Origin: a virus
Direction: 5' to 3' (one strand)
Length of the DNA stretch: 64,000 nt
IMG/VR virus record: IMGVR_UViG_3300027851_000016
Span: 27,153-91,152 of that record
Part shown: positions 1 to 61,539 of the stretch, piece by piece
Layout: every line of letters begins with the position of its first letter
Numbering within the stretch: position 1 is the stretch's first letter
The notes under the pieces: generated by a model
Seen by the model: the letters and a program-made list of their open reading frames with translations, nothing else
The model's database searches: none
What the model was told of the DNA's origin: nothing
Position numbers and translations under genes: made by a program

Positions 1-2
1 TC

Positions 3-530
3 GTGCACCTGTGCAACGTGTGGCCTGCGGTGCACAAGTACACGAAGGACCTGCTTGTATGCTCTGACGACACCGAGGAGATGCACAGGGTTCTGAATGA
101 CAAGTTGATGAAGGAGCACTCGTTTTGGGGGTTTGACTACGAGACGCTGCTCATGCACCGCATGGATGCTGTCGGGGACATGTCTGACTGGAATGCTGGA
201 CCGACGCGCACGGATGACGAGCTGCGCGAGGTGCTGGCTGGTGTGTATGCCGAAGTCGCAGGGAAACAGCTACGACCGATTCCGTTCTACGCAGTCGATG
301 CGCATACGCGAGAGGGAAAGCGTGTGTGGTTGACGCAGCGCAAGCAGATTCGACCGAATGCTCCGTGTACGGTGGCTGACCTGCGGTATGCGGCGAACTG
401 GGTGTCGATGCTCTGGCGCAGGGAGGCATGGAAGCAGTTCGGGACGATTCATGTTGCCTGGGAGGATGTCGTGTTGCCAGAAGACAGGTATTACAAGGCG
501 CTCTGGAAGGGAGTGTACCCGCATGAGTAG
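3..530 (+). CDS. 5'-truncated hypothetical protein, possibly a divergent thymidylate-synthase/hydroxymethylase-like C-terminus
   Basis: ORF open from the window edge and coupled to the next gene (ATGAGTAG). Loose resemblance of REGKRVWLTQR...FGTIHVAWEDVVL to TS-fold strands; function uncertain. Confidence 0.5.
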   Translation: MHLCNVWPAVHKYTKDLLVCSDDTEEMHRVLNDKLMKEHSFWGFDYETLLMHRMDAVGDMSDWNAGPTRTDDELREVLAGVYAEVAGKQLRPIPFYAVDAHTREGKRVWLTQRKQIRPNAPCTVADLRYAANWVSMLWRREAWKQFGTIHVAWEDVVLPEDRYYKALWKGVYPHE

Positions 531-1719
531 GGTTCTTGTCCTCGGTGGCGGGCTTGCTGGGATGACCGTGGCAAAGGCTCTTGCAGGCAGCCACGACGTG
601 CGGGTGCTTGAGCAGGAGGACCGACTGGGTGGCCTGCTGCGTACGTTCCGTGGCACCGTAGACGGGGTCGGTGAGTTCCGCTTCGACATCGGTGGGCATT
701 GGCTGCATCGGGACGGGTTCTCAGGTGTGGCCGACCTGTTCTCAGGACTGGTCGAGCACGAGCGCCATGCCTTCGTGTACGTGAACGGGAAGCATGGGCG
801 GTTCCCGATTCAGGCGTTCTACGATGACGTGTTTGATGGGGAGACAGCCGTAAGCATCTGTGAGGAGTTGGCAAACAGGACAGACGACCAGCCCAGGTCA
901 TACGCTGACATGCTGCAGAAGAGCTATGGGGAGACGCTGTTCGACAGGTTCTTCGAGCCGTACAACCGCAAGCTGTTCGGTGTGCCAGACCTGACACCCA
1001 TCAGCTTCGGTGAGTTGGAGTTGGTGCGGAACGTTAGAGTCGGAGACAAGGCGGGGTACAACAGCACGTTCCTGTATCCCGACGGGCAGGGCATCGAGTC
1101 GCTGATTGAGGACCTGAAGGATGACCGCGTCGAGTACATCCTTGATGAGATGGCAGTGCACGTCGATACGCAGGCGCACATCGTGACCTGTGCAGACGGT
1201 ACCCCGTACACGTATGACGTACTCGTATCGACAGTCCCGCTCGACATGCTCACTGCGATGGTAGGCGAGCCGCTATACCTGCTGGGGTCTCAGGGACTTG
1301 TGATGAACATGGGGGTCAAGAAGAACCCGAATCACGTCGGAAAGAACTGGGTGTACTACCCAGATGATGGTCTGCCGTTCTACCGTGTCGGTCTGTATAG
1401 CGAAGCCGACCCGACTGCTGCTCCTGAAGGGTACGTGGCAATGTACGTCGAGGTGTCCACACTGCGCCCGTGGACCAACGCAGAGGTAATGCTGGGCCTG
1501 CAGAAGGTCGGGATGATTGAGAGTCCGACCGATGTGGTGCTGCAGCAGGCCGCGTACCTGCCGACGAACTACTGCTTCGCTGACCCGCGTGTTCCAGGGG
1601 TCTTGCAAGCATTCCGTTTGGCTGGTGTGCACTCGATTGGACGGTATGGGAGCTGGCACTGGTCGTCCATGCACGAGGATGTGAAGCAGGCGCTCGAACT
1701 GGCGGAGAGGATTCGGTAA
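523..1719 (+). CDS. FAD-dependent oxidoreductase, UDP-galactopyranose mutase-like
   Basis: N-terminal GGGLAG Rossmann motif, EQEDRLGG, FDIGGHW, and C-terminal GRYGSWHWSSMHEDVKQAL typical of the UGM/Glf-like family. Start taken at ATG 523. Confidence 0.8.
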   Translation: MSRVLVLGGGLAGMTVAKALAGSHDVRVLEQEDRLGGLLRTFRGTVDGVGEFRFDIGGHWLHRDGFSGVADLFSGLVEHERHAFVYVNGKHGRFPIQAFYDDVFDGETAVSICEELANRTDDQPRSYADMLQKSYGETLFDRFFEPYNRKLFGVPDLTPISFGELELVRNVRVGDKAGYNSTFLYPDGQGIESLIEDLKDDRVEYILDEMAVHVDTQAHIVTCADGTPYTYDVLVSTVPLDMLTAMVGEPLYLLGSQGLVMNMGVKKNPNHVGKNWVYYPDDGLPFYRVGLYSEADPTAAPEGYVAMYVEVSTLRPWTNAEVMLGLQKVGMIESPTDVVLQQAAYLPTNYCFADPRVPGVLQAFRLAGVHSIGRYGSWHWSSMHEDVKQALELAERIR

Positions 1720-2138
1720 TGATGTACGTTCGGTATCTGTGGACGGTCCTCAAGCACAAGTGGTTCGTCTTCGTTGAGTGCGCCAAAGAGGGAATCGCGT
1801 GGCGTGGGTTGATTCATGACATGAGCAAGTTCCTGCCAAGTGAGTGCATTGCGTATGCAGAGTATTTCGAGGGTGACCCAGATGATAACGTGGCGTTCAA
1901 TGCTGCGTGGGCATTGCACGTGAGGCGGAACGACCATCACTGGCTCCATTGGCTTGTGGATGGTGAGGCGCAAGAGATGCCGTTTGAGGCTGTAGTCGAG
2001 ATGGTCTGTGACTGGGTTGGGGCGGCGCGGGCGTACAAGGGTGATGGAATTGTACCGTGGTACACCCAGAACGGTCCGAACATGGTGCTACATGCTAAGA
2101 CCCGTGAACTGGTTGAGGAACTTGTGAGTGTGCGATGA
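1719..2138 (+). CDS. HD-like hydrolase (DUF5662-like)
   Basis: HK...HDMSKF...HVRRNDHHW...EMVCDW motif pattern. Confidence 0.7.
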   Translation: MMYVRYLWTVLKHKWFVFVECAKEGIAWRGLIHDMSKFLPSECIAYAEYFEGDPDDNVAFNAAWALHVRRNDHHWLHWLVDGEAQEMPFEAVVEMVCDWVGAARAYKGDGIVPWYTQNGPNMVLHAKTRELVEELVSVR

Positions 2139-3592
2139 GACTCCTGTACCTGCCGCTGTACACGAACAAGAACCTGAATGGGGACAGCAGCTACAACGTC
2201 GCGTCGAAGTTCATCGCGAGTGCGGTCGAGCGTGGGTGGTTCGTACACTGGGTACTGCCCCAGGTGGGTGGTGGTAGCCGCTTCCACTATGAGGGGTCGA
2301 GGGCTGCGATTGAGAACCACCCGCAGGTCCTCGTGCATCGTGTGCCCTCCATCGAGGACCAGTACATGCAGACAGGCGTGGTGCCTGCAGACGTGTTGTT
2401 CAGGCTGTTCAGTCAGCACCAGGGCAGGTATCACATCGACGCTGTGCTCACGGAGAAGCCTGCGAGTGCGGCGTATGTGCGTAAGTTGCTCCAGCACCCG
2501 TTCACACGTCCTGCGAAGGGCAAGAACAGGTGGCTCGGTAAGACTCCTGCACTGCCCATGTTCGTTCGCGACCCGTTCACGAAGTCCCAGGAACTGCACA
2601 TCATCAGCGATGTCGAGGAGGTCGAGCAGTCTGTCGGGTACCTGACCAGCTACAGCATCTTCATGTGCCAGACGGACTTCGATATGGCCTCGAAGGTCGC
2701 GAAGCGGTACCTGAACTACGGGCAGGTCAAGAAGATGCAGGCTCGGTCGGTGGTGCTCCCGCCAGGTACGGCGACGGCAGAGTTGTTGCCCGTCAGGGAG
2801 GCGGCGGTCAAGCGGGACAGGTTCACTGTACTGATTGCCGAGCGTTTGAAGAACGGTGCGCTCATGGATTCGCTCGATGCAGTGGACTACATGTTCAAGC
2901 GTGGGTACCAGATGGATGTCGTAATCAGCTCGCAGTCGGAACTGAACCGCAAGACGCTCATGAACTACCCGACTGTCTTCGAGCACGCAGAACTGCACCC
3001 AGCGAACCCGAGAGACCAGTATCTGCCGCTGGCTGCGGCGTGCCACGCAACGATTACGATGCCCTCGACGCACAGCTACCCACAGGGTCTGATGGAGCGG
3101 CTGTACTTGGGACTCGTTGCGGTGCTGCCCGACTACCCATGGGTGCACACGTTGTTGCCCGACTATCCGTTCGTGGTGAAGCGGAACGTGAAGTCGATGG
3201 TGGCGATGCTCAAGTGGATTGAGGAGAACTACGAGGAGGCCAAGCAGAAGGTCGCCTGGGTGCCTGGGTACATCGAGGAGCACTACGATGCCCAGTTGCT
3301 GGCGGAGAAGACGATGCGGCATATCGAGGAGACGACGGCGCTGGTTCGCGCGAGTTCGGCACCATCGAGCGGGTTCTTGGAGTTGATTGACCAGTTCGAC
3401 TTCGATGAGGCAGACGAAGAGACGCTGTTTGAGTACATGAAAGCGCATTCGACCACGGGACTGTCGTTCAACAATGAGGGGAAGACTGCTGCGTTCGGCA
3501 GCTACAAGTCGCAGTTGTTCCAAGCGATGCGGCATCGTGGGTGGGAAGACACGTGCGAGGGTCCGTTCGTGACGATGAGGAGGAAGAGCTGA
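2135..3592 (+). CDS. GT-B fold glycosyltransferase 1
   Basis: 485 aa, two-Rossmann layout. MPSTHSYPQGLMERLYLGLVAVLP resembles the GT4 E-x7-E region; extra C-terminal domain. Confidence 0.7.
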   Translation: MRLLYLPLYTNKNLNGDSSYNVASKFIASAVERGWFVHWVLPQVGGGSRFHYEGSRAAIENHPQVLVHRVPSIEDQYMQTGVVPADVLFRLFSQHQGRYHIDAVLTEKPASAAYVRKLLQHPFTRPAKGKNRWLGKTPALPMFVRDPFTKSQELHIISDVEEVEQSVGYLTSYSIFMCQTDFDMASKVAKRYLNYGQVKKMQARSVVLPPGTATAELLPVREAAVKRDRFTVLIAERLKNGALMDSLDAVDYMFKRGYQMDVVISSQSELNRKTLMNYPTVFEHAELHPANPRDQYLPLAAACHATITMPSTHSYPQGLMERLYLGLVAVLPDYPWVHTLLPDYPFVVKRNVKSMVAMLKWIEENYEEAKQKVAWVPGYIEEHYDAQLLAEKTMRHIEETTALVRASSAPSSGFLELIDQFDFDEADEETLFEYMKAHSTTGLSFNNEGKTAAFGSYKSQLFQAMRHRGWEDTCEGPFVTMRRKS

Positions 3593-4254
3593 TGTCGTTG
3601 TACGACAAGGACAAGATAGTTGGATGCTTCGAGAGCGAGGAGCAGTGGCGTGATGAGGCCGACGAGATAATCGCCATGCAGATGAGCTACCGCTCACACG
3701 CTTTGATGATGGGCAAGGTTGTTGACACGTTCTTCGATGTGGTCGAGCGGAACCATGGTGCAGCGACGGTTCTCGATGTCGGCTGTGGCACGGCCATGTT
3801 CCTCGACTACGTTCGTGAACAGTACGGTCTGCACCGTGTGGAGCGGTACGTTGGGTACGAGTTGGTCACACGATTCGGGGAGAAGGCAGCGCAGAAGCTC
3901 GAAGACTATGGTGTCCGTGGAGCGATTGTGGGTGCCGACTTCTTCGACCTGGGGACCACCGCAGCACCAGCTGACCTGGTGATTGCCTCGCAGTGTCTGA
4001 ACACGGTGTTCAGCGATGACCCGCTGGCCTTCATCGCGATGGCAGTGGACCAGCTGTGGTCGATGACGCGGCACTCGCTCGTGTTCGACCTGAAGGATGT
4101 GGCTGCTCCGAGGATTCTCGACCCGCACCTGCGGACGTACTACGACCCTGTGTACGTGTACAAGGTGTGCCGTGACCACACGGTGAACGTCACAGTCAGC
4201 CAGACCACGAAGGCGAACTTCACGGTGGTCATGTCGCGGGAGGAGCTGTACTGA
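3592..4254 (+). CDS. Class I SAM-dependent methyltransferase
   Basis: VLDVGCGTA motif I, YVGYE, DLVIAS. TGATG overlap with the upstream stop. Confidence 0.85.
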   Translation: MSLYDKDKIVGCFESEEQWRDEADEIIAMQMSYRSHALMMGKVVDTFFDVVERNHGAATVLDVGCGTAMFLDYVREQYGLHRVERYVGYELVTRFGEKAAQKLEDYGVRGAIVGADFFDLGTTAAPADLVIASQCLNTVFSDDPLAFIAMAVDQLWSMTRHSLVFDLKDVAAPRILDPHLRTYYDPVYVYKVCRDHTVNVTVSQTTKANFTVVMSREELY

Positions 4255-5399
4255 TGATTCTGCTTCTCGGCAAGGGGGAGGGTCTGCAGGCTCTGACCGA
4301 TGTGTTTGCTGGTGAGGATGCGGTTGCACTCACTGATGCGGGCAGGACACCTGACGAACTGTGTGCGGATGTCCGAAGTGTCCTAGAAGTCCACGAGTTC
4401 GAGTTCGCCGTGGCTAATGGACTGTCTTGTGCGAAGGCCCTGGACGTACTCGATGGTGTGGGTGTGCCCACGGTCGGCGCGACGACACAGGATTGGCATA
4501 TCGAGATGGACAAGCCGTTCGGCAAGAAGTTGTGCGCCGAAGTCGGTGTAGGCACGAGCGAGTGGTGGACGGTGGACTTGGCTGACCTGGATGAAACGGA
4601 GTGGGAGTTTCCGTGCTACGTGAAGCATCGCAAGGCCATCGGCGGGACGACCTCGTTCAAGGTGCACTCGAAGAAGCAGATACGAAACCTGATTCGTGCG
4701 TATGGCTACGAGCGCGGGTTCATCGTGGAGCTGCCACTTGCAGGCATCGAGTTCAGCATGAATGCGCTGATTGGTGCTGAGAACTGGCAGGTGATTGGTT
4801 GCAACTACGACATGAAGGGGCCGACAGGCAAGGTGGTCGGGAATGCCTATGGTGCGGCTGGTGAGCATACAGCTTGGATTGAGGGGCAGCTTGCTCCGTT
4901 GTTCCAGGCGGTATGTGGGATGGGTTACCGAGGAGTGCTCGCCGTGACGGTGTTCATGACCGACGAGGGACTTCGCATGATTGAGCTGAATGTACGTGTT
5001 GGGACAGGGTCGGGGTACACGTACCTGAACAACGTCTCGAACATGGCGGACATGCTGCGAGCCTGTGCGCTCGGGCAGAGCATCCCTGCACCGCAGTTCA
5101 AGCATCTGTACGGGCTGTCGGTCACGGTGGACTCAGGCTTGAGGCGAGAAGCGTATGACCTTGAGGTCGGGCTTCTTGAGCCGCTGGGTGATGGTGTGGT
5201 GCTGGTCGAGAACAATGTGTACGACGGGATGAGCAACGGTGCCGCCCCGTACCTACTGGTCGGGTTCGGTGACTCGTCATTGCAGAGTGTTGGAGAGACC
5301 CTGATGGAGAACTTGAGGTGTTTGGATGTCCCACTGATGTCTAAGCCTGAACTAGACCTTGACCGTTTCGATAGACTGGCGGAGGTGCTGCCACGATGA
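4254..5399 (+). CDS. ATP-grasp ligase (PurD/GARS-like)
   Basis: EMDKPFGKKLCAEVGV, FPCYVK, IVELPLAGIEFS, IELNVRVG (ExNxR). Confidence 0.75.
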   Translation: MILLLGKGEGLQALTDVFAGEDAVALTDAGRTPDELCADVRSVLEVHEFEFAVANGLSCAKALDVLDGVGVPTVGATTQDWHIEMDKPFGKKLCAEVGVGTSEWWTVDLADLDETEWEFPCYVKHRKAIGGTTSFKVHSKKQIRNLIRAYGYERGFIVELPLAGIEFSMNALIGAENWQVIGCNYDMKGPTGKVVGNAYGAAGEHTAWIEGQLAPLFQAVCGMGYRGVLAVTVFMTDEGLRMIELNVRVGTGSGYTYLNNVSNMADMLRACALGQSIPAPQFKHLYGLSVTVDSGLRREAYDLEVGLLEPLGDGVVLVENNVYDGMSNGAAPYLLVGFGDSSLQSVGETLMENLRCLDVPLMSKPELDLDRFDRLAEVLPR

Positions 5400-6061
5400 A
5401 GATTGTCGTGCACCAGCCTGTGTTCCTGCCGTACCTTGGAGTGGTGGGCAAGATTGCACACGCGGACGGGCTTGTCCTGCTCGATGACGTGCAGTATGTC
5501 CGTCGTGGGTTCATGAATCGGAACCGCATCCTGACGAAGGATGGTGAGCACTGGCTGACCGTGCCCGTTCGAAAGGCTCCGCAGGATACGCAGGTCAAGG
5601 ACATCGAAATCAGCTACGAGACCGACTGGCAGCGGCAGATGAAGCGTACGCTGGAGATGGCGTATGGGAAGGCTCCGCACTTCGAGGCAACGATGGCGGC
5701 ATTGCAGCCCTTGTGGGTAGCGAAGCCCAATCACCTGATGGACCTGAATGTTCTGCTGCTTGAGCGAGTGTTGAAGTTCTTCGGGGTCAGTGTGCCTGTG
5801 TGGTGGAGCAGTGACTTCCCCCCTGTCGAGGACCCGACGCAGCGTTTGCTGGATAGGGTCGAGCGTGTTGGTGGCACTGTCTACGTGGCTGGTGCGAACG
5901 GGAAGGCGTACATGGAACTGACGGGGGACGAACGTGTGAAAGTACAGTTCGAGGAGTATGCTTGTCCCGAGTACGCGCAGTTCAACAGCACCGAGTTCGT
6001 ACCGTACCTCTCGGTGGTGGACTACATGATGAACGTCGGGGCGGTGCGGAAAGCACTGTAG
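5396..6061 (+). CDS. WbqC-like family protein (putative glycyl/aminoacyl transferase)
   Basis: HQPVFLPYLG, DDVQY, NRNRI, WLTVPV, YGKAPHF, LSVVD: the WbqC motif set. Confidence 0.9.
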   Translation: MKIVVHQPVFLPYLGVVGKIAHADGLVLLDDVQYVRRGFMNRNRILTKDGEHWLTVPVRKAPQDTQVKDIEISYETDWQRQMKRTLEMAYGKAPHFEATMAALQPLWVAKPNHLMDLNVLLLERVLKFFGVSVPVWWSSDFPPVEDPTQRLLDRVERVGGTVYVAGANGKAYMELTGDERVKVQFEEYACPEYAQFNSTEFVPYLSVVDYMMNVGAVRKAL

Positions 6062-6087
6062 GATTGAACAGGACAGAGGAGGCAAGG

Positions 6088-6804
6088 ATGCTCGGATTCA
6101 GTGACCAGTGCGTTCTCGTTATCAGCCCGCACCAGGATGACCTCGAAATCGGATGCGGTGGCATCGTTCAGAAGTTCCTCGCTGCTGGGAGCGACGTGCA
6201 TGTCGTGCACGGTACGCTCGTAGACCTCGCAGGCACGTATCGCAAGTATGACAAGGCGACTGATACGTACACGACGTACACGGGTGCCCAGCGGTTCGAG
6301 GAGACTCGCAGTGCGTTGGCGGTGCTTGGTGGTGCGAGTCCTGACGCGTGGCGCGGGATAGTGGTGCACGACCCGCTGTTCAGCAGTGACAAGCACCATC
6401 GAATCGACACGGTACCGCTGTCGGAGCGTATCGAGGTGCTGGAGTCGGTTATCAGTGCGGTGAAGCCTACCGTGCTCTTGTACGCAGCTGAGTCCTCGAA
6501 CCAAGACCACGAAGCGCTTGCGCGCACCGTTCGCAGTGTCATGCGCCCGCATTTCTACAGTGGCATGGTCATCGAGTACGAGATTGGTGACGAGGTGGCG
6601 TTCGTCCCGAACTTGTTCGTGCCCATGACCGACCAGGAGTTGCGCAGGAAGCTCGATGCGTTCGAGGCGTACGAGACCCAGCAGAGTGGGGACCTGCACG
6701 TCGTCAGCGAGTGCGGTATCCAGTACAAGGCACAGTACCGAGGGAAGCAGTGCTACCACCCGTATGCGGAAGCGTTCCGAGTGCTGAGGATGGTGGCGGG
6801 GTGA
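6088..6804 (+). CDS. PIG-L/LmbE family N-deacetylase
   Basis: SPHQDDLEIGCGG, NQDH, KLDAFEAYETQ, AEAF. AGAGGAGG SD upstream of ATG 6088. Confidence 0.85.
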   Translation: MLGFSDQCVLVISPHQDDLEIGCGGIVQKFLAAGSDVHVVHGTLVDLAGTYRKYDKATDTYTTYTGAQRFEETRSALAVLGGASPDAWRGIVVHDPLFSSDKHHRIDTVPLSERIEVLESVISAVKPTVLLYAAESSNQDHEALARTVRSVMRPHFYSGMVIEYEIGDEVAFVPNLFVPMTDQELRRKLDAFEAYETQQSGDLHVVSECGIQYKAQYRGKQCYHPYAEAFRVLRMVAG

Positions 6805-8267
6805 TGCGAGTCCTGCTACCAGTCGGTGCTGTACGCGAGGGGTTCTACGACGACGGTGTCATGCGCGTCGGGAACACGGGTATGCCAAGCATCTGGAAGG
6901 TGATTCGTGACTTCGGCAAGCTGAACAGCGACCGTGGCTGGTTCTACTATGGGGCTGTGATGTACAGCAACAAGAACGCTGTCGAAGTGCTGCCACTGAA
7001 GGACATCAACGGCTCGCTCGTGCTGATGCACACGACCGACCGTACCTGGATTGAGGTCGGCACGTTCTACCTGACCAAGATGCTGATTCAGAAGTTCTCG
7101 TACAACGGCACGTGTCCTGTTGACTGTGTGCTCATGGGTGGCACGGTGGACGCGGCAGCATACCGCTACTACATGGCATACCGACATGGGCTGCAGCAGC
7201 GTCCGTTGCTGTTCTACCGCACGCACAATGGCGTGACCGAGAGTCCGTCGAGCAAGGAGTTGTGGTTCTCAGCGGCGAAGGACAACGCACAGGTGGTGAA
7301 CAGCCTGGTGAACTTCGACCGTCTGTATCTGAGTGCTCCTCATCTGCTGGATGCGTACGTGAAGATAGCCAAGGGCTACCTGTCGTTCAGCGCGGTGAAG
7401 GACTTGATGGAACGGTTCGTGTACGCGCCGCAGGGGTCCCCTGCATTCGAGGGCGAACTGAACCTGGACAGGGGGAAGGTCGTCGGGTACTTCGGGCGGC
7501 TGAACGACACGCACAAGAATACCGACATGGTGTTCAGGGAGTTCGACAAGTTGTACAAGGCTGGTGCTGTGTCAGAGGTGCTGGTGACCAGTCCGATGGC
7601 CTCGGACAAGGACAAGCCGACGCTTGACCTGATTCCGTATGTGGACCTGAAGGTTCTTGGCATGGAGTACCTGAAGGAAGTCGAGCGTACGCGAGCGACG
7701 GTCGCGGCCTACGAGTCCATCGCCTGCCCCGTTGCGATGCTAGAGCAGATGGCCCATGGGGTCGTGCCTGTCGTACCGAAGGACAGGATGTGGTCTCGGT
7801 CGTTCTTTGGGCATGAGTTCCCCGAGTATCCGTTCATGTACAGCAGTAAGTCGGAGATTGGGCCGATGCTGCGGCTGCTCATGGACAACGACGAGATGTA
7901 CAAGATGTGGGCACAGAAGCTGTCGGACAGGGTACGTCAGCGGTACGAGTATCGAACGCTGAAGCGGTCCTTGTACGACGACATGCAGCAGCGGGTCGAT
8001 GTGTACCCGAAGCCCAAGTACATGGACTTCGACCTGGAAGCGTTCCGTACGTATAGGTTCGTGGCGGAGGCCGAAGAGTTGGCCGAGCGGCTGGGGGATG
8101 AGTTCACGTTCGACAGGTTCATGAAGGAGGCACAGCGTCTGCCCATGCGGGGTAGGGGTGGGGTGCCAGTGTTGAGCAACAAGGGTGTGCTCCGCCTGCT
8201 TGAGGCGATGGGGTACACCGACACGATGGATAGTGCAGACATTCGACTGAGGAGGACCCGTGCCTGA
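6804..8267 (+). CDS. GT-B fold glycosyltransferase 2
   Basis: VGYFGRLNDTHKN and YESIACPVAMLEQMAHGVVPVV; paralogous to 2135-3592 (PEYPF vs PDYPF). Confidence 0.75.
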   Translation: MRVLLPVGAVREGFYDDGVMRVGNTGMPSIWKVIRDFGKLNSDRGWFYYGAVMYSNKNAVEVLPLKDINGSLVLMHTTDRTWIEVGTFYLTKMLIQKFSYNGTCPVDCVLMGGTVDAAAYRYYMAYRHGLQQRPLLFYRTHNGVTESPSSKELWFSAAKDNAQVVNSLVNFDRLYLSAPHLLDAYVKIAKGYLSFSAVKDLMERFVYAPQGSPAFEGELNLDRGKVVGYFGRLNDTHKNTDMVFREFDKLYKAGAVSEVLVTSPMASDKDKPTLDLIPYVDLKVLGMEYLKEVERTRATVAAYESIACPVAMLEQMAHGVVPVVPKDRMWSRSFFGHEFPEYPFMYSSKSEIGPMLRLLMDNDEMYKMWAQKLSDRVRQRYEYRTLKRSLYDDMQQRVDVYPKPKYMDFDLEAFRTYRFVAEAEELAERLGDEFTFDRFMKEAQRLPMRGRGGVPVLSNKGVLRLLEAMGYTDTMDSADIRLRRTRA

Positions 8268-9078
8268 CGAGAAGCGTATCGAGATAACGTACATCAGTGT
8301 CGATGACCTGGTGCCGATGGAAGAGAACCCGAACTTCCAGTCGGATGCAGTGTTCAACAACCTGGTGGACAACATCAGCAAGATTGGGATGGTCGAACCC
8401 ATCATGGTCGCCCCGCTGCGGGACGAGGATGGCGCGATTATCGAGGGCAAGTACAAGATTGTCTCTGGTGAGCATCGGTACTTTGCCTGCAAGATGCTTG
8501 ACTATGAAGAGGTGCCGACCATCGTCCAGATGGACTTCGATGACGACGCGGCGCGGTTCCAGCTGGTCCGCATGAACATGCTCAAGGGCAAGCTCGACCC
8601 CGTGAAGTTCACGAAGCTGTACAACCAGATGGCAGAGAAGTACGGCGAGGAACTGACCAAGGAACTGATGGGTCTGGTCGAGGAGGCGGCGTTCAAGAAC
8701 CTGTACCTGCAGGTGAAGAAGGAACTGTCGCCAGAGATGCAGGAGAAGCTCGAAGAGTCGAAGGATGACATCAAGACGGTCGATGACCTGAGTCGCGTGC
8801 TGAACGAGATGTTCAGCAAGTATGGTGACACGCTGCATCAGCACTTCATGGTGTTCCAGTACGGCGGCAAGACCCACCTGTGGGTGCAGATGTCGAAGGA
8901 CTTGAAGAAGCGGATGATTGACCAGTACGTGGAGAAGCTGAAGGCGGGGAACTTCGACATGAACGAGTTCTTCGACAAGCTCATCCTGCAGTACGGAGAC
9001 GCGGTCATGGAGACCATGGAGCCGATTGCCGTAGACGAGGATGAGGGCATCTTCGTGGATTCCGAGGGCGTGCTCTGA
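8260..9078 (+). CDS. ParB/Srx N-terminal domain protein
   Basis: LVPMEENPN, NISKIGMVEPIMV, IVSGEHRYFA (GxxR). Confidence 0.9.
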   Translation: MPDEKRIEITYISVDDLVPMEENPNFQSDAVFNNLVDNISKIGMVEPIMVAPLRDEDGAIIEGKYKIVSGEHRYFACKMLDYEEVPTIVQMDFDDDAARFQLVRMNMLKGKLDPVKFTKLYNQMAEKYGEELTKELMGLVEEAAFKNLYLQVKKELSPEMQEKLEESKDDIKTVDDLSRVLNEMFSKYGDTLHQHFMVFQYGGKTHLWVQMSKDLKKRMIDQYVEKLKAGNFDMNEFFDKLILQYGDAVMETMEPIAVDEDEGIFVDSEGVL

Positions 9079-9599
9079 TGAAGTTGGTGCGCCCGTCTGT
9101 GGAGTACAAGGATAGCTACCTCGTAGGACTGCACGAGTTTCGTATCGACGGCATCTGTGTGGACTACGATGAGGCTGCGATTGCTGAGGACTTCGAAGGG
9201 TTCGTGCAACGACAGCTTGACGACTACGACGAGTCCAAGATTCCAGTCGGGCATGTCCCGTACCTGCGGCTGTGGGCCGTGCACGACGGAGAGTTCGTAG
9301 GGCACGTCACGATTCGATGCGGGATGAACGAGGACGTGTGGAAGAAGGGTAACGTCGGGTACGCTGTGGTGCCGTCGCGTCGGAGCCAAGGGTTCGGTAG
9401 GATGATGCTCGTTGAGGCGCTTGCACGGATAGAGCGGATGTGTGGAGAAGGACACTGGCACTGGATGGTGTTGGTGGTGTGCGGTGTGGCGAACACGTGG
9501 TCACGAAAGATAGCTGAGTCGTGTGGTGGTCGCTGGGTCGGGACGCATGAACCAGATGGAAGCAAGGTCGTGTACCTCATGCCGATAGGTGGGTGCTGA
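9078..9599 (+). CDS. GNAT family N-acetyltransferase
   Basis: GNVGYAVVPSRRSQGFG (motif A), NTWSRKIAESCGG. Confidence 0.85.
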   Translation: MKLVRPSVEYKDSYLVGLHEFRIDGICVDYDEAAIAEDFEGFVQRQLDDYDESKIPVGHVPYLRLWAVHDGEFVGHVTIRCGMNEDVWKKGNVGYAVVPSRRSQGFGRMMLVEALARIERMCGEGHWHWMVLVVCGVANTWSRKIAESCGGRWVGTHEPDGSKVVYLMPIGGC

Positions 9600-10081
9600 T
9601 GGATAAGCAGTACAGCGCGGAAGAGCACCAGCTGCTGGAGGCTGGACTCAAGTTCGTGCAGACGAGTGGTGTTCCCATGACGAAGGTGGCGTGGGGGCTG
9701 GCAAGCATCATCGGGAGACAGGACAACGCTGTGTACCATCGCATGCAGTCGATGGCCAGTGGCTCGTTCGACCCGACAGCTGAGCTGGACGAGGATGTGA
9801 CCGACGAGGATGAACGACTCGACCGCAGGGTCGGTGAGGTCGTTGCTGCAAGAGTGGCGAGTATCAAGTCGTATGGAGCGCTCTGCGTGGTGGAGGGTAC
9901 GACGCGGGCGCTGCTGCTACATGTCAGCGAGATAGCCGACGAGTACATAGACGACGTGAACGAGTACCTGGCTGTCGGGGATGTCGTCCAGGCGATTCTC
10001 GTAGTGAGCACGAAAGAGGACAGGCTCGCCTTGTCAACGAAGCGCATTGGGACTGTCAAGCGGAAGACCCCGAAGGCGTGA
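9599..10081 (+). CDS. Myb/HTH-like domain fused to an S1 RNA-binding domain
   Basis: C-terminal VGEVVAARVASIKSYGA...LHVSEIADEYIDDVNEYLAVGDVV...LALSTK is an S1 domain; N-terminal YSAEEHQLL...IIGRQDNAVYHR is Myb-like. Confidence 0.75.
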   Translation: MDKQYSAEEHQLLEAGLKFVQTSGVPMTKVAWGLASIIGRQDNAVYHRMQSMASGSFDPTAELDEDVTDEDERLDRRVGEVVAARVASIKSYGALCVVEGTTRALLLHVSEIADEYIDDVNEYLAVGDVVQAILVVSTKEDRLALSTKRIGTVKRKTPKA

Positions 10082-10380
10082 GCGGGTACGAAGAAGGCTT
10101 CGATGCCGCACAGACAGAAGATGTGACCTCGATTCGAGTGCAGGTAGGCCCATGGCTCGACATGGTGGCGACTGGTCCACGAGTGGCGGTGGCACTGGAG
10201 ACGTTCCTGAAGGTGCACGGAGGGAAGTTGCGGGAGGAGGGGGAAGTCAGCTTCCTGTACCTCTGCCGTGATTGGTTCAGGATGCGGGAGTTCGACGCGC
10301 ACATCGAACCGTGCAGCGACCTGAACAGGTTCCAGAAGATGTTCTTGAACCGACTGCTCAAGATAGACGGGAAGCCATAG
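10078..10380 (+). CDS. Hypothetical protein
   Basis: GTGA-coupled ORF ending the operon. Confidence 0.65.
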   Translation: MSGYEEGFDAAQTEDVTSIRVQVGPWLDMVATGPRVAVALETFLKVHGGKLREEGEVSFLYLCRDWFRMREFDAHIEPCSDLNRFQKMFLNRLLKIDGKP

Positions 10381-10512
10381 CTGTCACGACTTGTCAGCAG
10401 AATAGCTCGAAACGGACCCTCGTTCGCTCGAAAGGCGGCGGGGGTCTTGTCATGAGTGGTTGTGTTGTCAGTAGAGGGGGATGTAGAGTTGTCAGCAAGG
10501 TGTTAGTTGTCA
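10381..10512. repeat. Cluster of TTGTCA(G) direct repeats in a non-coding gap
   Basis: TTGTCA at 10391, 10447, 10465, 10489, 10507, plus CTGTCA at 10381. Confidence 0.75.
10415..10450 (+). terminator. GC-rich hairpin, probable terminator of the modification operon
   Basis: GACCCTCG...CGAA...CGGGGGTC followed by TTGT. Confidence 0.45.
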
Positions 10513-10636
10513 GTCGGAATCGAAGGCGGCGGCGGGCACCGAAAAAGCGGGGAAACGTATGGTGTATGCTCGGAAGATAGTAAGAGCAGGCAACGTACGC
10601 CGAACAGTACAAGACACGCAGGGAGTGACAGGACAG

Positions 10637-10848
10637 TGGCACAGGCAGAGGCATGCGGTCAGCGAGGTCCCGCTACAGACCCGCGCAGGGACGACAGTCC
10701 AGTCCTCGTCAGGGTGACGCCCTCGTTCTTGGAGACGGTGATTGCCCAGTCAAGTCCGCCAGGATTCGCACGGTTCGTCACGTGGCGTGAGCCTGATGCG
10801 AACGGTGTGTACACGCCGATGGTCACGCAGGTGAAGTGCGATGGCTGA
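10637..10848 (+). CDS. Small hypothetical protein
   Basis: GTG start after a purine-rich leader; overlaps the next start. Confidence 0.45.
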
Positions 10849-11482
10849 GAAGAAGGCCGCTCGTAGGCAACGCTCAGACGCGTTCTCCGACCTGAAGGCC
10901 ATGTACTGCTACGGTGACATGGACAAGAAGGTCAAGGCAGGTATTGCCGTCGAGGAGATTGCCCGCTGGCTACAGGAGGACTGTTTCCAGTTGCTGGGAA
11001 TCAAGAGGGACAGTCTGGTACGGAAGCTGTACAGGTACAAGGCCCAGCTGCCCGCTGCCGACCTGGTGAAGAACCCGCCCCTGTACCTGGAGAGGGCGAT
11101 TGAGAAGCTCAGGCGCGGAGTGAACGAGGTCGAGGAGCTAGAGAAGCTGTACCTGCTCCAGTTGAAGCGCATCAGCATGGATGCCGAGACCGAGGAACGC
11201 ATCACGAAACTGTTCAGCGGGACGAACGCTGAGATTCGGACGGCAGCAGACCTGCTCGCTAAGATGATGCAGATGAAGCAGGAACTCGGTATCGTCCAGA
11301 AGGTGCCTGACCGCATCGACCTCGGTGGTGGGGTCAACGTCGGTCACCTGGTAGACGAGGATACCGACGAGGGTACGAAGGCCAAGTTGGGACTACTGGC
11401 TGGCAAGTTGCTCGATGCGATGGGAAAGTCGGTAGCAGAGGCGGAGAAGACGCAGGACGAGGAGGATTCTGATGTTGGCTGA
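10841..11482 (+). CDS. Probable terminase small subunit
   Basis: N-terminal HTH-like helices, central coiled coil, C-terminal beta segment; lies upstream of TerL. Confidence 0.55.
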   Translation: MAEKKAARRQRSDAFSDLKAMYCYGDMDKKVKAGIAVEEIARWLQEDCFQLLGIKRDSLVRKLYRYKAQLPAADLVKNPPLYLERAIEKLRRGVNEVEELEKLYLLQLKRISMDAETEERITKLFSGTNAEIRTAADLLAKMMQMKQELGIVQKVPDRIDLGGGVNVGHLVDEDTDEGTKAKLGLLAGKLLDAMGKSVAEAEKTQDEEDSDVG

Positions 11483-11642
11483 GGTGTTCGTGCTGATTGC
11501 CGTCAGTGCCATCGCTAGTGCGCTGGTCCTGTTCCTGCCTCGGAAGGAAGACCGTGTGAAGAGCTTGTCGCTGCCCGAGAATCCGAGTACTGGGCAGAAT
11601 CCGTTCGATGTTGACCTGGGGTCTGGAGAGGAACAGTCATGA
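11472..11642 (+). CDS. Small membrane-anchored protein
   Basis: GGAGGA SD; N-terminal hydrophobic helix MLAEVFVLIAVSAIASALVLFL. Confidence 0.55.
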   Translation: MLAEVFVLIAVSAIASALVLFLPRKEDRVKSLSLPENPSTGQNPFDVDLGSGEEQS

Positions 11643-11902
11643 AGGTGCAGGTAGTGGTGAGTATGAGCGGCCAGTTCACGCTCGAAGTCGAGGGGGTGGA
11701 CAAGGTCACCGCTGATGACATCATCGCGAAGGCCACTGAGATGTGGGGAGTCTCGCCCGATGAGCTGTTCCAGCCGTTCGTCGTGGCGGCGAGCATGAGT
11801 AGTGGTGGGCATCGTCTGCTCGAAGGGACGGACAATGTCCTGGAGGGCCTTGGCGACGGCAGCATGCTCCGTGTGGCAATGCCCCTCCGAGCGAAGGACT
11901 GA
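11639..11902 (+). CDS. Ubiquitin-like (beta-grasp) protein
   Basis: FTLEVEGVD..ADDIIAKATEMWGVSPDE...LE...GSMLRVAMPLR follows the ubiquitin/YukD pattern. Confidence 0.55.
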   Translation: MKVQVVVSMSGQFTLEVEGVDKVTADDIIAKATEMWGVSPDELFQPFVVAASMSSGGHRLLEGTDNVLEGLGDGSMLRVAMPLRAKD

Positions 11903-11905
11903 CCG

Positions 11906-12229
11906 ATGCTGAGACCAAGTCTGGTGCGGGCCATCGGCGTGGAGATGCGGGCGGCTCAGGACAAGCATGGAGACCAGTACGTCGAGAACCTGACGATGCG
12001 TTCCTCGATTGACCTGCACCTCGTGCATTCGATGGTGTCTGCTGGTGCGATGGCGCGGTCGATGTGCGACGAGGGGTACCCGACTCAGCTGGCCGTCCTC
12101 ATGGAAGAGGTCGGTGAGGTGGTCGAGGCGGTGCTTGCTGGGAGCGACCCGACAGAGGAACTGATTCAGGTGGCGGCGATGGCAGCGGCCATGGCCCAGA
12201 AGCAGATGGGGGAGGTTGACGAGGGGTGA
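11906..12229 (+). CDS. MazG-like NTP pyrophosphohydrolase
   Basis: LMEEVGEVVEA...EELIQVAAMA (EExxE...EL). Confidence 0.7.
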   Translation: MLRPSLVRAIGVEMRAAQDKHGDQYVENLTMRSSIDLHLVHSMVSAGAMARSMCDEGYPTQLAVLMEEVGEVVEAVLAGSDPTEELIQVAAMAAAMAQKQMGEVDEG

Positions 12230-12537
12230 GTGAGTTGACCACTGACCCGAAGGACCCGAGACTCGGTCATGGGGTGGACACCGAACCAGTACCACAGAAT
12301 GAGGCGTACCTCGTCCTGTCGGAGGAGGAGCGTGCGCAGGGATTCGTCCGTCCTGTTCGCAGGGCATACGTGCACAAGACGTGCGGGTCCCTGACGATGA
12401 TGAGTCGGGCAATAGCTGAGACCTACGCTCGTGACCCGAAGTTCTACGGAGCGACGTACTGCTGCGCATGCCAGAAGCACCTGCCAGTCAGCGAGTTCGC
12501 CTGGGATGACGGTGTCGGAACGCCCGTCGGTTCCTGA
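12226..12537 (+). CDS. Small Zn-binding protein
   Basis: HxxC...YARDPKFYGATYCCAC. Confidence 0.7.
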   Translation: MSELTTDPKDPRLGHGVDTEPVPQNEAYLVLSEEERAQGFVRPVRRAYVHKTCGSLTMMSRAIAETYARDPKFYGATYCCACQKHLPVSEFAWDDGVGTPVGS

Positions 12538-12549
12538 AAAGGAGTGGCT

Positions 12550-12700
12550 GTGGCAAAGCATCGCAAGAAGGCCAACCGAACGGCACGGGCGGGCTGTCAC
12601 TACTGCAAGCCCTGGAAGTTGCGTTTGAGGGGCCGCACCTCGCCAGACTTCGAATCGTTCTCGGCGCACCGTAGGCGCGTGACTATAGGAGAGGACTAGA
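12550..12700 (+). CDS. Small basic CxxC protein
   Basis: AAGGAG SD, GTG start, MAKHRKK...GCHYCKPWK. Confidence 0.5.
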
Positions 12701-12701
12701 C

Positions 12702-12833
12702 ATGAGTCTCGTACCACCGTCGAAGTTCGACCAGGGCAGGTTCGCTCTTGCATACCTGACGATTGTCATGACGGTCGCAGGGGCGTGCGGAGTCACATGG
12801 TTGGTGGCCAAGCTGTTTGGCATGCTTCCGTGA
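12702..12833 (+). CDS. Small membrane protein
   Basis: GAGGA SD; hydrophobic stretch; stop overlaps the TerL GTG. Confidence 0.5.
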   Translation: MSLVPPSKFDQGRFALAYLTIVMTVAGACGVTWLVAKLFGMLP

Positions 12834-60927: not shown

Positions 60928-61539
60928 ATGGGCTTTGAAGAGGTAGTGTGCGGACTCATGCTGGGCGATGGTTCCCTGGAGAGGCGCGGGAACGCTCGAC
61001 TGAAAGTGCTTCGAAAGCAGGAGCATGCAGAGTACAACGTGTGGTTGAAAGCATTGCTGATAGATGACTTCGACTTCGGGCCAGACCAAGAAAGCCATAC
61101 GCAGGATGCACGTACGGACAAGGAGTACCACGGGTCCCGCATCAAGACACATGCAGATGAGCGCCTGACCGTGCTGCACACGTTGTGGTACGCGGACAAG
61201 AAGGTAGTGCCTGTTGCTTTTGTGGAGCAGTACTTCACGGCGTTGTCCCTGGCTATCTGGTACTTGGATGATGGCACGCTGACGAGGACGGGGAAGCAGG
61301 GTTACTACCGTACAGTTCTTGCAACGAACTGCTTCAGTCATGAAGAGGTCGCGTATCTGAGTGAGTTGCTTGCGCGGAGGTTTGGAATCAAAGCGCATGT
61401 AACACCGTGGCAAGGAAGATACGTACTGCGCATGTTTCAAGAAGAGAGCACGAAGTTATTAGACGTGGTCGGCTCTGTGTTGCCTGCACAAGGACTTGAG
61501 TGCATGCAGTACAAGCTGCAGATGATGGGAAGGTTGTGA
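60928..61539 (+). CDS. Free-standing LAGLIDADG homing endonuclease
   Basis: GLMLGDGSL, LSLAIWYLDDG, TNCFS; MQYK terminus. Confidence 0.88.
   Translation: MGFEEVVCGLMLGDGSLERRGNARLKVLRKQEHAEYNVWLKALLIDDFDFGPDQESHTQDARTDKEYHGSRIKTHADERLTVLHTLWYADKKVVPVAFVEQYFTALSLAIWYLDDGTLTRTGKQGYYRTVLATNCFSHEEVAYLSELLARRFGIKAHVTPWQGRYVLRMFQEESTKLLDVVGSVLPAQGLECMQYKLQMMGRL

Follow-up and report, generated by a model that had tools for sequence, protein, structure and literature searches.

A conserved glycosyltransferase-ParB pair is the core of an elaborate phage gene cluster encoding sugar-tailoring enzymes

Which molecule is the target of a phage gene cluster that combines sugar-tailoring enzymes with a ParB-like protein and lies upstream of the terminase genes? 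The locus that raises this question is located in a 64,000-nucleotide stretch of viral DNA (hereafter, the window), which spans bases 27153-91152 of IMG/VR record IMGVR_UViG_3300027851_000016, a single virus contig of 91,152 bp rated as complete by CheckV, with every gene on the + strand. A preliminary description of the window had outlined a ten-gene operon at 523-9599 and proposed it as a candidate new DNA hypermodification pathway with mycothiol-like logic. Gene identities were assessed through Pfam, PHROG, NCBIfam and PDB-sequence searches, with start codons refined for the cluster genes, and these analyses, together with fold searches, confirmed the ten genes on the + strand and the enzyme families assigned to them. 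The cluster comprises 11 genes: these ten and a gene coding for a MgsA_C-like protein directly upstream. Comparative analysis reveals that a glycosyltransferase (GT) and the ParB-like protein form a conserved pair, the core of a phage-specific and widespread module of which this cluster is one elaborate version. Regarding its function, we tentatively favor a post-replicative and probably sparse glycosylation through which phage DNA, with the assistance of ParB, comes to carry an aminoacylated amino-sugar, a reading that we deem possible rather than probable.

The pair is represented in the window by three genes:

2135-3592, + strand: GT1, a GT-B/GT4-like glycosyltransferase (phrog_30253; AlphaFold2 (AF2) model; Foldseek)
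6804-8267, + strand: GT2, a GT1 paralogue with the same length and C-terminal domain
8260-9078, + strand: ParB/Noc/KorB-like protein (Pfam ParB_N; phrog_26387, 3.8e-67)

No Pfam match was obtained for GT1, and its AF2 model (predicted local distance difference test, pLDDT, 83; predicted template modelling score, pTM, 0.84) presents a GT-B fold. The nearest structures identified by Foldseek are the GT4 enzymes BshA, PglA, LmbT, MshA and PimA, with E-values of 1e-11 to 1e-12 for the first four. GT1 and GT2 share 26% identity over 207 amino acids (aa; E 4e-9), and residues D102, E321 and P345 are invariant in the alignment of the GT family. Both proteins carry an additional conserved C-terminal domain (approximately residues 405-485 in GT1) that harbors a G[YW]xDTCxGP motif and displays, in the AF2 model of GT1, a helix-strand-helix-helix-strand-strand topology. 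Several members of the family end in tails rich in lysine and arginine. A search with the family profile identified at least 590 clusters (50% identity) at E<=1e-30 among 1.84 billion representatives, and nearly all of these span 450-510 aa and match the whole profile, C-terminal domain included.

The profile and modelling evidence points to a genuine ParB/Noc/KorB-type (CTPase-like) protein as the product of 8260-9078, with nucleotide binding predicted. The subfamily profile matched Noc in the PDB with an E-value of 4e-18, and the AF2 model (pLDDT 84.6) returned CTP-bound ParB, Noc and KorB in Foldseek searches. The protein encompasses a ParB-CTPase fold, a helical middle region that aligns with Noc and KorB over some 200 columns with a low template modelling (TM) score, and a C-terminal beta-hairpin followed by helices. 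The GERR motif usual in ParB is replaced by GEHR, with the G, H and R invariant in the subfamily. An NCBIfam match had prompted the consideration of a SerK-like small-molecule kinase, an identity that was dropped on comparing the PDB matches to Noc/ParB (4e-18) and SerK (1e-6). Among 185,579 species genomes of bacteria and archaea the subfamily is nearly absent, with only three weak matches, all in metagenome-assembled genomes.

Megablast searches of the cluster against phage records did not return any matches. A tblastn search with GT1 against isolate phages identified 11 records, corresponding to the Rhodobacter RcF, Agrobacterium JP1 and Arthrobacter KellEzio-like phages, and the record inspected for each group (RcTiptonus, JP1 and KellEzio), taken to represent all 11 isolates, shows a ParB-like gene at a distance of one or two small genes from the GT. 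A search of IMG/VR with the ParB alignment yielded 235 relatives, and the loci of the best 80 of these were examined using simple greedy open reading frame (ORF) calling on one strand. A GT1-family gene was detected in 46 of the 80, nearly always immediately upstream of ParB (another arrangement was observed twice, with both gene orders represented), and in 33 the large terminase gene, terL, follows within 6 kb; WbqC and PIG-L genes were detected in 6 and in 6-8 of these loci, respectively. At the whole-genome level, GT1 and ParB are the only proteins common to all four comparison genomes and, in the case of an unrelated contig (G002), they are virtually the sole genes in common with the genome analyzed here. 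GT-linked proteins are found in both halves of the ParB tree when it is rooted at its midpoint, a root used for drawing only, and at least 8-10 gains or losses are needed to account for their distribution. This spread over the tree indicates that the GT-ParB partnership is old and has been repeatedly kept. The search for similar neighborhoods in viral databases advocated in the preliminary description hence uncovers a widespread module with varying cassettes, and shows that such a cluster is not confined to the phage analyzed here.

The remaining genes of the cluster make up the cassette that surrounds the pair:

1-530, + strand: MgsA_C-like helical protein of 379 aa, C-terminal part (genome 26543-27682; gene start 609 nt ahead of the window)
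523-1719, + strand: UDP-galactopyranose mutase (UGM)-like flavoenzyme, predicted nucleoside diphosphate (NDP)-sugar pyranose/furanose mutase (NAD_binding_8/Amino_oxidase in Pfam; 4dsg in the PDB)
1719-2138, + strand: DUF5662 protein with an H..HD..HH..D pattern (Pfam E 5.4e-35)
3592-4254, + strand: S-adenosylmethionine (SAM)-dependent methyltransferase (Pfam Methyltransf_25/11/12; 46% identical to its orthologue in the cluster of the related contig G003)
4254-5399, + strand: ATP-grasp carboxylate-amine ligase, PurD/Ddl-like, with weak matches (purD TIGR00877, 6.5e-8; VanA/PurD in the PDB, ~5e-4)
5396-6061, + strand: WbqC-family protein (Pfam PF08889, E 3.5e-59)
6088-6804, + strand: PIG-L/LmbE-type de-N-acetylase (Pfam E 4.2e-15; BshB1 NCBIfam 2.6e-9, both under equivalog cut-offs)
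9078-9599, + strand: GNAT-type acetyltransferase, weak match (Acetyltransf_3/1/7, E 2e-5 to 3e-4)

The UGM-like protein aligns along its full length (residues 3-386) with residues 11-438 of the Trypanosoma cruzi UDP-galactopyranose mutase 4dsg (E 1.6e-24), and the HMMER alignment reveals that it retains the GGH loop and the PYNxK, PFYR and GR[FY]GxW motifs of that enzyme, which we take to serve flavin and substrate binding. The FAD-binding Rossmann fold and these motifs place it in the UGM family as a predicted mutase. The WbqC protein, a family found in O-antigen loci, matches PF08889 over its full length (200.7 bits, against a gathering cut-off of 21.3) and is predicted to participate in acyl or aminoacyl transfer to a sugar amine; no relative was detected by sequence in the PDB, and a single-sequence scan of IMG/VR did not return any match. 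No relative was found among PDB sequences for the DUF5662 protein either. Phages often encode members of this family, which in Actinomycetota is fused with a 2-thiouracil desulfurase, and the histidine and aspartate pattern of the protein makes an HD-type phosphohydrolase possible. The 379-aa protein lacks matches in Pfam and PDB-sequence searches, and its nearest Atlas clusters and features, as well as the structure matches, indicate a MgsA_C-like domain; the possibility of a hidden dioxygenase was rejected on these grounds. The ten-gene run had been described as translationally coupled. Stop/start overlaps of 1-8 nt do join most cluster genes, and the flanking genes on both sides are packed likewise, so that gene coupling is not a special trait of this run. 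Promoter and terminator scans of window positions 1-13000 yielded counts not above those of shuffled sequence.

The variability of the genes accompanying the pair was assessed with a Pfam scan of 149 ORFs adjacent to it in 38 non-redundant loci. The tallies include only the 25 commonest families, and rare families may hence escape them:

NDP-sugar epimerases / 4,6-dehydratases: 12-13 of 149 ORFs
DegT aminotransferases: 8 of 149
PIG-L: 8 of 149
YAcAr/DprA-like SLOG: 7 of 149
WbqC: 6 of 149
winged-helix proteins: 6 of 149
extra GTs: 4 of 149
UDP-glucose dehydrogenase: 2 of 149
ThyX: 2 of 149
radical SAM: 2 of 149
MgsA_C: 2 of 149

Individual loci present RmlC/RmlD-like genes, a methyltransferase with DegT and a dehydratase, or a WbpB-like oxidoreductase with DegT, and genes encoding the PurD-like ligase, PIG-L and WbqC recur next to the same GT family in other phages. 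In minimal modules, the YAcAr/DprA-like SLOG gene is often located directly upstream of the GT, as in RcTiptonus (L001:8182-8571) and JP1 (L002:983-1399). The DUF5662 protein was considered as a counterpart of the RcTiptonus DprA-like gene, an option rejected because the sequences show no similarity. In another locus, a 462-aa protein encoded between the GT and ParB (L086:3280-4668) has a weak QueC-like (PP-loop ATPase) N-terminus.

The closest relative of the genome analyzed here is G003, a 71-kb contig with terminal repeats and 45.6% GC, whose core proteins are 50-72% identical. The equivalent slot in G003 contains genes for PIG-L, a MgsA_C-like protein (362 aa), the methyltransferase (46%), a PurD-like protein, WbqC, a GT, an NDP-sugar epimerase, a second GT and ParB (59%). 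The gene preceding wbqC encodes a full PurD-like protein with GARS_N/A/C, and UGM, DUF5662 and GNAT are not present in this cluster. The comparison indicates that deacetylase, PurD-type ligase, WbqC and methyltransferase constitute a conserved sub-unit in which the adjacency of ligase and WbqC is kept, and that the mutase and the GNAT, for which no homologue was detected across the 80 related ParB loci, are lineage-specific additions. Since its 362-aa analogue lies inside the G003 cluster, the gene for the 379-aa MgsA_C-like protein is probably the first gene of the cluster described here. Directly after the GNAT gene, the window encodes an S1-domain protein (9599-10081) that occupies the same place in G003 (46%).

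Cassettes of this type are reminiscent of O-antigen and low-molecular-weight-thiol pathways, with which they share 4,6-dehydratase, DegT, WbpB-like oxidoreductase, PIG-L, WbqC and UGM genes. The cluster might then act on the host envelope (O-antigen, capsule or a teichoic-acid-like polymer) or on a soluble, mycothiol- or bacillithiol-like glycoside, leading to superinfection exclusion or to a redox or metabolic takeover, with ParB as an unrelated neighbor. BshA and MshA are among the nearest folds to GT1, and in bacteria the GT4-WbqC-LmbE trio shares its operon with murG (PMC10404621). Nevertheless, all the proteins of the cluster are soluble and devoid of membrane segments, and no flippase, polymerase, polyprenyl-phosphate transferase or initiating phosphoglycosyl transferase was found in it. 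A cysteine ligase resembling MshC or BshC is likewise lacking, the phages involved are large, apparently lytic siphoviruses, in which seroconversion is unusual, and the linkage of the GT with a ParB subfamily virtually absent from bacterial genomes would be left unexplained. We hence regard an envelope or soluble target as quite improbable.

If the target is instead phage DNA, ParB would bind it, as ParB-CTPase proteins do, and would give the GT access to double-stranded DNA or hold it there. GT1 or GT2 would transfer an N-acetylhexosamine (HexNAc) from a host nucleotide sugar, PIG-L would strip the N-acetyl group off the attached sugar, and the PurD-type ATP-grasp ligase and WbqC would load glycine or another small acid onto the freed amine. 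The GNAT and the methyltransferase could then cap the product, and a furanose originating from the UGM-like mutase could be added by the second GT. Such a modification would probably be sparse or site-directed, and might serve packaging, mark phage DNA or help to evade some defence distinct from type II restriction. The succession of HexNAc transfer, de-N-acetylation, aminoacylation and capping put forward in the preliminary description is upheld by the recurrence of PIG-L, WbqC and the PurD-type ligase beside the GT and by the preservation of their sub-unit in G003.

Several lines of evidence lead us to favor a DNA target. ParB homologues activate phage thymine dioxygenases (5mYOX) on double-stranded DNA, and GT, ParB and terminase are the commonest neighbors of these enzymes (PMC13229309), which provides strong precedent for the link between ParB and DNA modification invoked in the preliminary description. 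DNA methyltransferases are also often fused with ParB folds in phages (PMC12704722). A precedent likewise exists for the UGM, since DNA glycosylation in Rhizobium phage RL38J1 and in phage DLP3 is known to involve a phage UGM together with BshA/LmbT-like GTs, which assemble glycans of Gal/Glc and of arabinofuranose on DNA (PMC13326640). The recurrence of DprA-like and MgsA_C-like genes, the C-terminal domain of the GT and the K/R-rich tails of its family argue in the same direction, as do the adjacency of GT and ParB across phages of Proteobacteria and Actinobacteria, the apparently genuine ParB fold, the near absence of the ParB subfamily from bacterial genomes and the exclusively soluble nature of the cluster proteins.

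Other results weigh against this reading. Known routes to DNA glycosylation require an enzyme that makes the acceptor, and the preliminary description had recommended searching upstream of the window for a hydroxymethylase, a TET/JBP enzyme or a kinase. The complete 91-kb genome contains none of them: ThyA (PF00303), ThyX (PF02511), 2OG-FeII_Oxy_2 and 2OG-FeII_Oxy_3 are absent, and so is TET/JBP (PF12851) at E<=1, a threshold that very divergent forms could escape. ThyA and TET/JBP (E<=1) are also absent from RcTiptonus, JP1, G001 and G002, TET/JBP is missing from the 25 top-ranking Pfam families (of 67 and 39 found) in 257 neighbor ORFs, and the scanned ORFs of this genome and of the four relatives did not yield any cytosine-5 methyltransferase. 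We know of no acceptor for a GT4-type enzyme in canonical DNA. Furthermore, a profile of the C-terminal domain of the GT did not yield any credible winged-helix match among PDB sequences. The GT is missing from 34 of the best 80 ParB loci, at least three of which are contigs ending just upstream of ParB, and this indicates that ParB has a GT-independent role, perhaps in packaging; a favored insertion slot could also lie behind part of the GT-ParB adjacency. A prediction of the GT1-ParB complex, with a separate alignment for each protein and run without controls, returned a score of 0.00 and speaks neither for nor against binding.

The GT-less ParB loci were also checked for a 5mYOX enzyme in place of the GT; 14 of them carry instead a non-dioxygenase protein of ~310 aa just upstream of ParB. 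This protein is apparently helical, lacks a Pfam family, contains the motif WGYxTFxDYAExELG (L031:4850-5791, L038:4737-5717, L039:4736-5656 and 11 more loci in alignment A4) and may be an alternative ParB partner.

Given that no acceptor-making enzyme was detected, the ParB-loaded GT might modify DNA that lacks a hydroxymethyl or hydroxy handle. Such a reaction would call either for an activating enzyme that has escaped recognition or for acceptor chemistry of a new kind, taking place on the DNA backbone, at a DNA end or on a canonical base, and the modification would be directed to specific sites, such as a parS- or pac-like site near the terminase genes. The glycan would then consist of a de-N-acetylated amino-sugar with a glycyl or acyl cap and a furanose. 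We assign a low probability to this specific proposal.

Alternatively, the acceptor could arise before replication, through the transfer of sugar to a deoxynucleoside mono- or triphosphate (dNMP or dNTP) or through an unrecognised enzyme altering the base first, with DUF5662 or SLOG proteins processing nucleotides and the family-A polymerase incorporating the product. The HD-like pattern of DUF5662 and its fusion elsewhere to a nucleobase-modifying enzyme are in line with this route, SLOG/DprA-like proteins are known to bind nucleotides, and the phage encodes its own PolA. Against it, no genes for a dNMP kinase, dNTPase, ThyA-like enzyme or deaminase were found in the ORFs scanned, neither DUF5662 nor SLOG is universal in the module, and the global replacement of a base conflicts with the avoidance of restriction sites described below. 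A pre-replicative route is hence very unlikely.

The genome shows strong avoidance of several restriction sites. GATC occurs 43 times, with 42 instances within the first 6,965 bp and none in the remaining 84 kb, and CCGG occurs 60 times against 344 expected, with 54 and 6 instances in the same two parts, while a single AATT is found against 39 expected. In G003, GATC is absent against an expectation of 136. RcTiptonus (L001, L007-L010) presents one GTAC instance against 222 expected and lacks 25 six-base palindromes with 8-55 expected instances each, and 14 six-base palindromes are absent from JP1 (L002, L011-L015). Genomes that are globally shielded should not need such avoidance, which argues against a global protective modification of DNA and indicates that any DNA modification is probably sparse or site-directed, or that the target is not DNA. 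In base composition, the first 6,966 bp of the genome, which lie upstream of the window, form an island with a GC content of 63.8%, versus 59.0% elsewhere, consistent with a recent acquisition or an assembly chimera.

Glycosylation of a protein would fit this avoidance and would not need a base-activating enzyme. The tailored glycan would in this case be transferred onto a capsid or tail protein, or onto a protein that binds DNA or takes part in packaging (ParB itself, for example), with ParB acting as substrate, as scaffold or as the head of the late operon. GT4 enzymes are known to include protein O-glycosyltransferases and small-molecule transferases, which also detracts from a DNA target, and the Foldseek matches of GT1 are generic GT4 enzymes. 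The cluster is located at the start of the late/structural region, and the glycosylation of virions by phage GTs is accepted in actinophages, as in the case of mycobacteriophage virions. A protein target would, however, leave unexplained why the GT is always found next to a ParB/Noc-like protein even where the structural genes of the phages are unrelated (e.g. G002), as well as the recurrence of DprA-like/SLOG and MgsA_C-like genes. We consider it a serious contender but, on balance, an unlikely one, and retain sparse, ParB-assisted glycosylation of DNA as the tentative interpretation.

The placement of the cluster upstream of the terminase, noted in the preliminary description, was verified, with terL located ~3 kb downstream, past seven small ORFs, and followed by a T4-like portal gene:

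10841-11482, + strand: probable small terminase, a conserved protein of 213 aa encoded between ParB and TerL, with homologues likewise placed in JP1, G001 and 10 IMG/VR loci
12785-15799, + strand: large terminase TerL, 1004 aa (35% identity over 932 aa to the RcTiptonus terminase)

The TerL proteins of JP1 and G003 align only at approximately residues 61-136 and 456-960, which suggests an insert of ~300 aa in the N-terminal half, either an intein or an extra domain. Elsewhere in the genome, a LAGLIDADG_3 segment, likely an intein, lies within a ResIII/DEAD helicase (L004:13-1716; genome 13013-14716), and the window contains a free-standing LAGLIDADG_2 endonuclease (60928-61539) and several HNH_3 genes.

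Should the target be DNA, the phages of Proteobacteria and Actinobacteria would possess an extensive and so far unexplored class of DNA glycosylation, represented by at least 590 GT clusters (50% identity) and working without either of the known means of making an acceptor and with ParB partnering a transferase rather than a dioxygenase. Aminoacylated amino-sugars and furanoses would join the chemistry of DNA, and WbqC would gain a testable role. Two routes to DNA glycosylation are known, one dependent on ThyA and the other on 5mYOX, and the modification of handle-free DNA by a ParB-loaded GT would add a third. Even with a protein or a host glycan as the target, the GT-ParB partnership heading the packaging operon would still be conserved and unexplained. 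The minimal module is present in three cultured phage-host systems that do not involve pathogens (Rhodobacter RcTiptonus, Agrobacterium JP1 and Arthrobacter KellEzio), and is thus directly testable.

With respect to known systems, the mycothiol-like character ascribed to the cluster holds in part. Like the mycothiol (MshA-D) and bacillithiol (BshA-C) pathways, the cluster combines the fold of a retaining GT4 HexNAc transferase with a LmbE/PIG-L deacetylase, ATP-dependent amide ligation and a GNAT. Its putative ligase system, however, consists of an ATP-grasp protein and WbqC, rather than the CysRS-like MshC or BshC; no tRNA-synthetase-like protein appeared in the ORFs scanned, which leaves the ATP-grasp protein as the sole ligase. 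The cluster also adds a mutase, a second GT, a methyltransferase and ParB, and the resemblance is best described as an analogy of logic and not as membership. The trio of GT4, WbqC and LmbE/PIG-L is shared with bacterial operons that carry ProRSx/tRNA-ProX and murG (PMC10404621), and the presence of a dedicated prolyl-tRNA synthetase and tRNA in these operons agrees with a role of WbqC in the transfer of aminoacyl or acyl groups. In phages, the trio is associated with ParB and terminase and sometimes with a PurD-like ligase, whereas its bacterial counterpart is found with an aminoacyl-tRNA synthetase, a tRNA and murG.

Among phage pathways, the glycosylation of 5-hydroxycytosine in RB69, DLP3 and RL38J1 relies on a ThyA homologue that makes 5-hydroxy-dCMP before replication, so that all cytosines are replaced (PMC13326640). 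The RL38J1-type pathways resemble the cluster in featuring a phage UDP-galactopyranose mutase and several BshA/LmbT/mannosyltransferase-like GT-B enzymes, and place furanose on DNA, but the genome analyzed here has no ThyA or ThyX homologue, and ParB is not mentioned in that study. The phage-enriched ParB-methyltransferase fusions (PMC12704722) similarly couple a ParB N-terminal domain to a DNA-modifying enzyme. The ParB of the window is instead a separate protein with a glycosyltransferase as its partner, and glycosyltransferases are not mentioned in that survey. A full-text literature search did not turn up any description of a dioxygenase-free GT-ParB module. The closest parallel comes from the post-replicative hypermodification clusters of 5mYOX (TET/JBP-like) enzymes, in which a ParB activator is found with glycosyltransferases (PMC13229309; bioRxiv 10.1101/2023.12.21.572611). 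Both systems present a GT and a partner with the ParB-CTPase fold beside the terminase, together with epimerases, O-methyltransferases, GNAT and amino-acid transferases and a diversity of glycans. The ParB, GT and terminase of the defining 5mYOX-ParB-GT arrangement are hence in place here and its dioxygenase is missing: in the module described in this work, the gene tied to ParB is not a dioxygenase but a glycosyltransferase endowed with an extra C-terminal domain.

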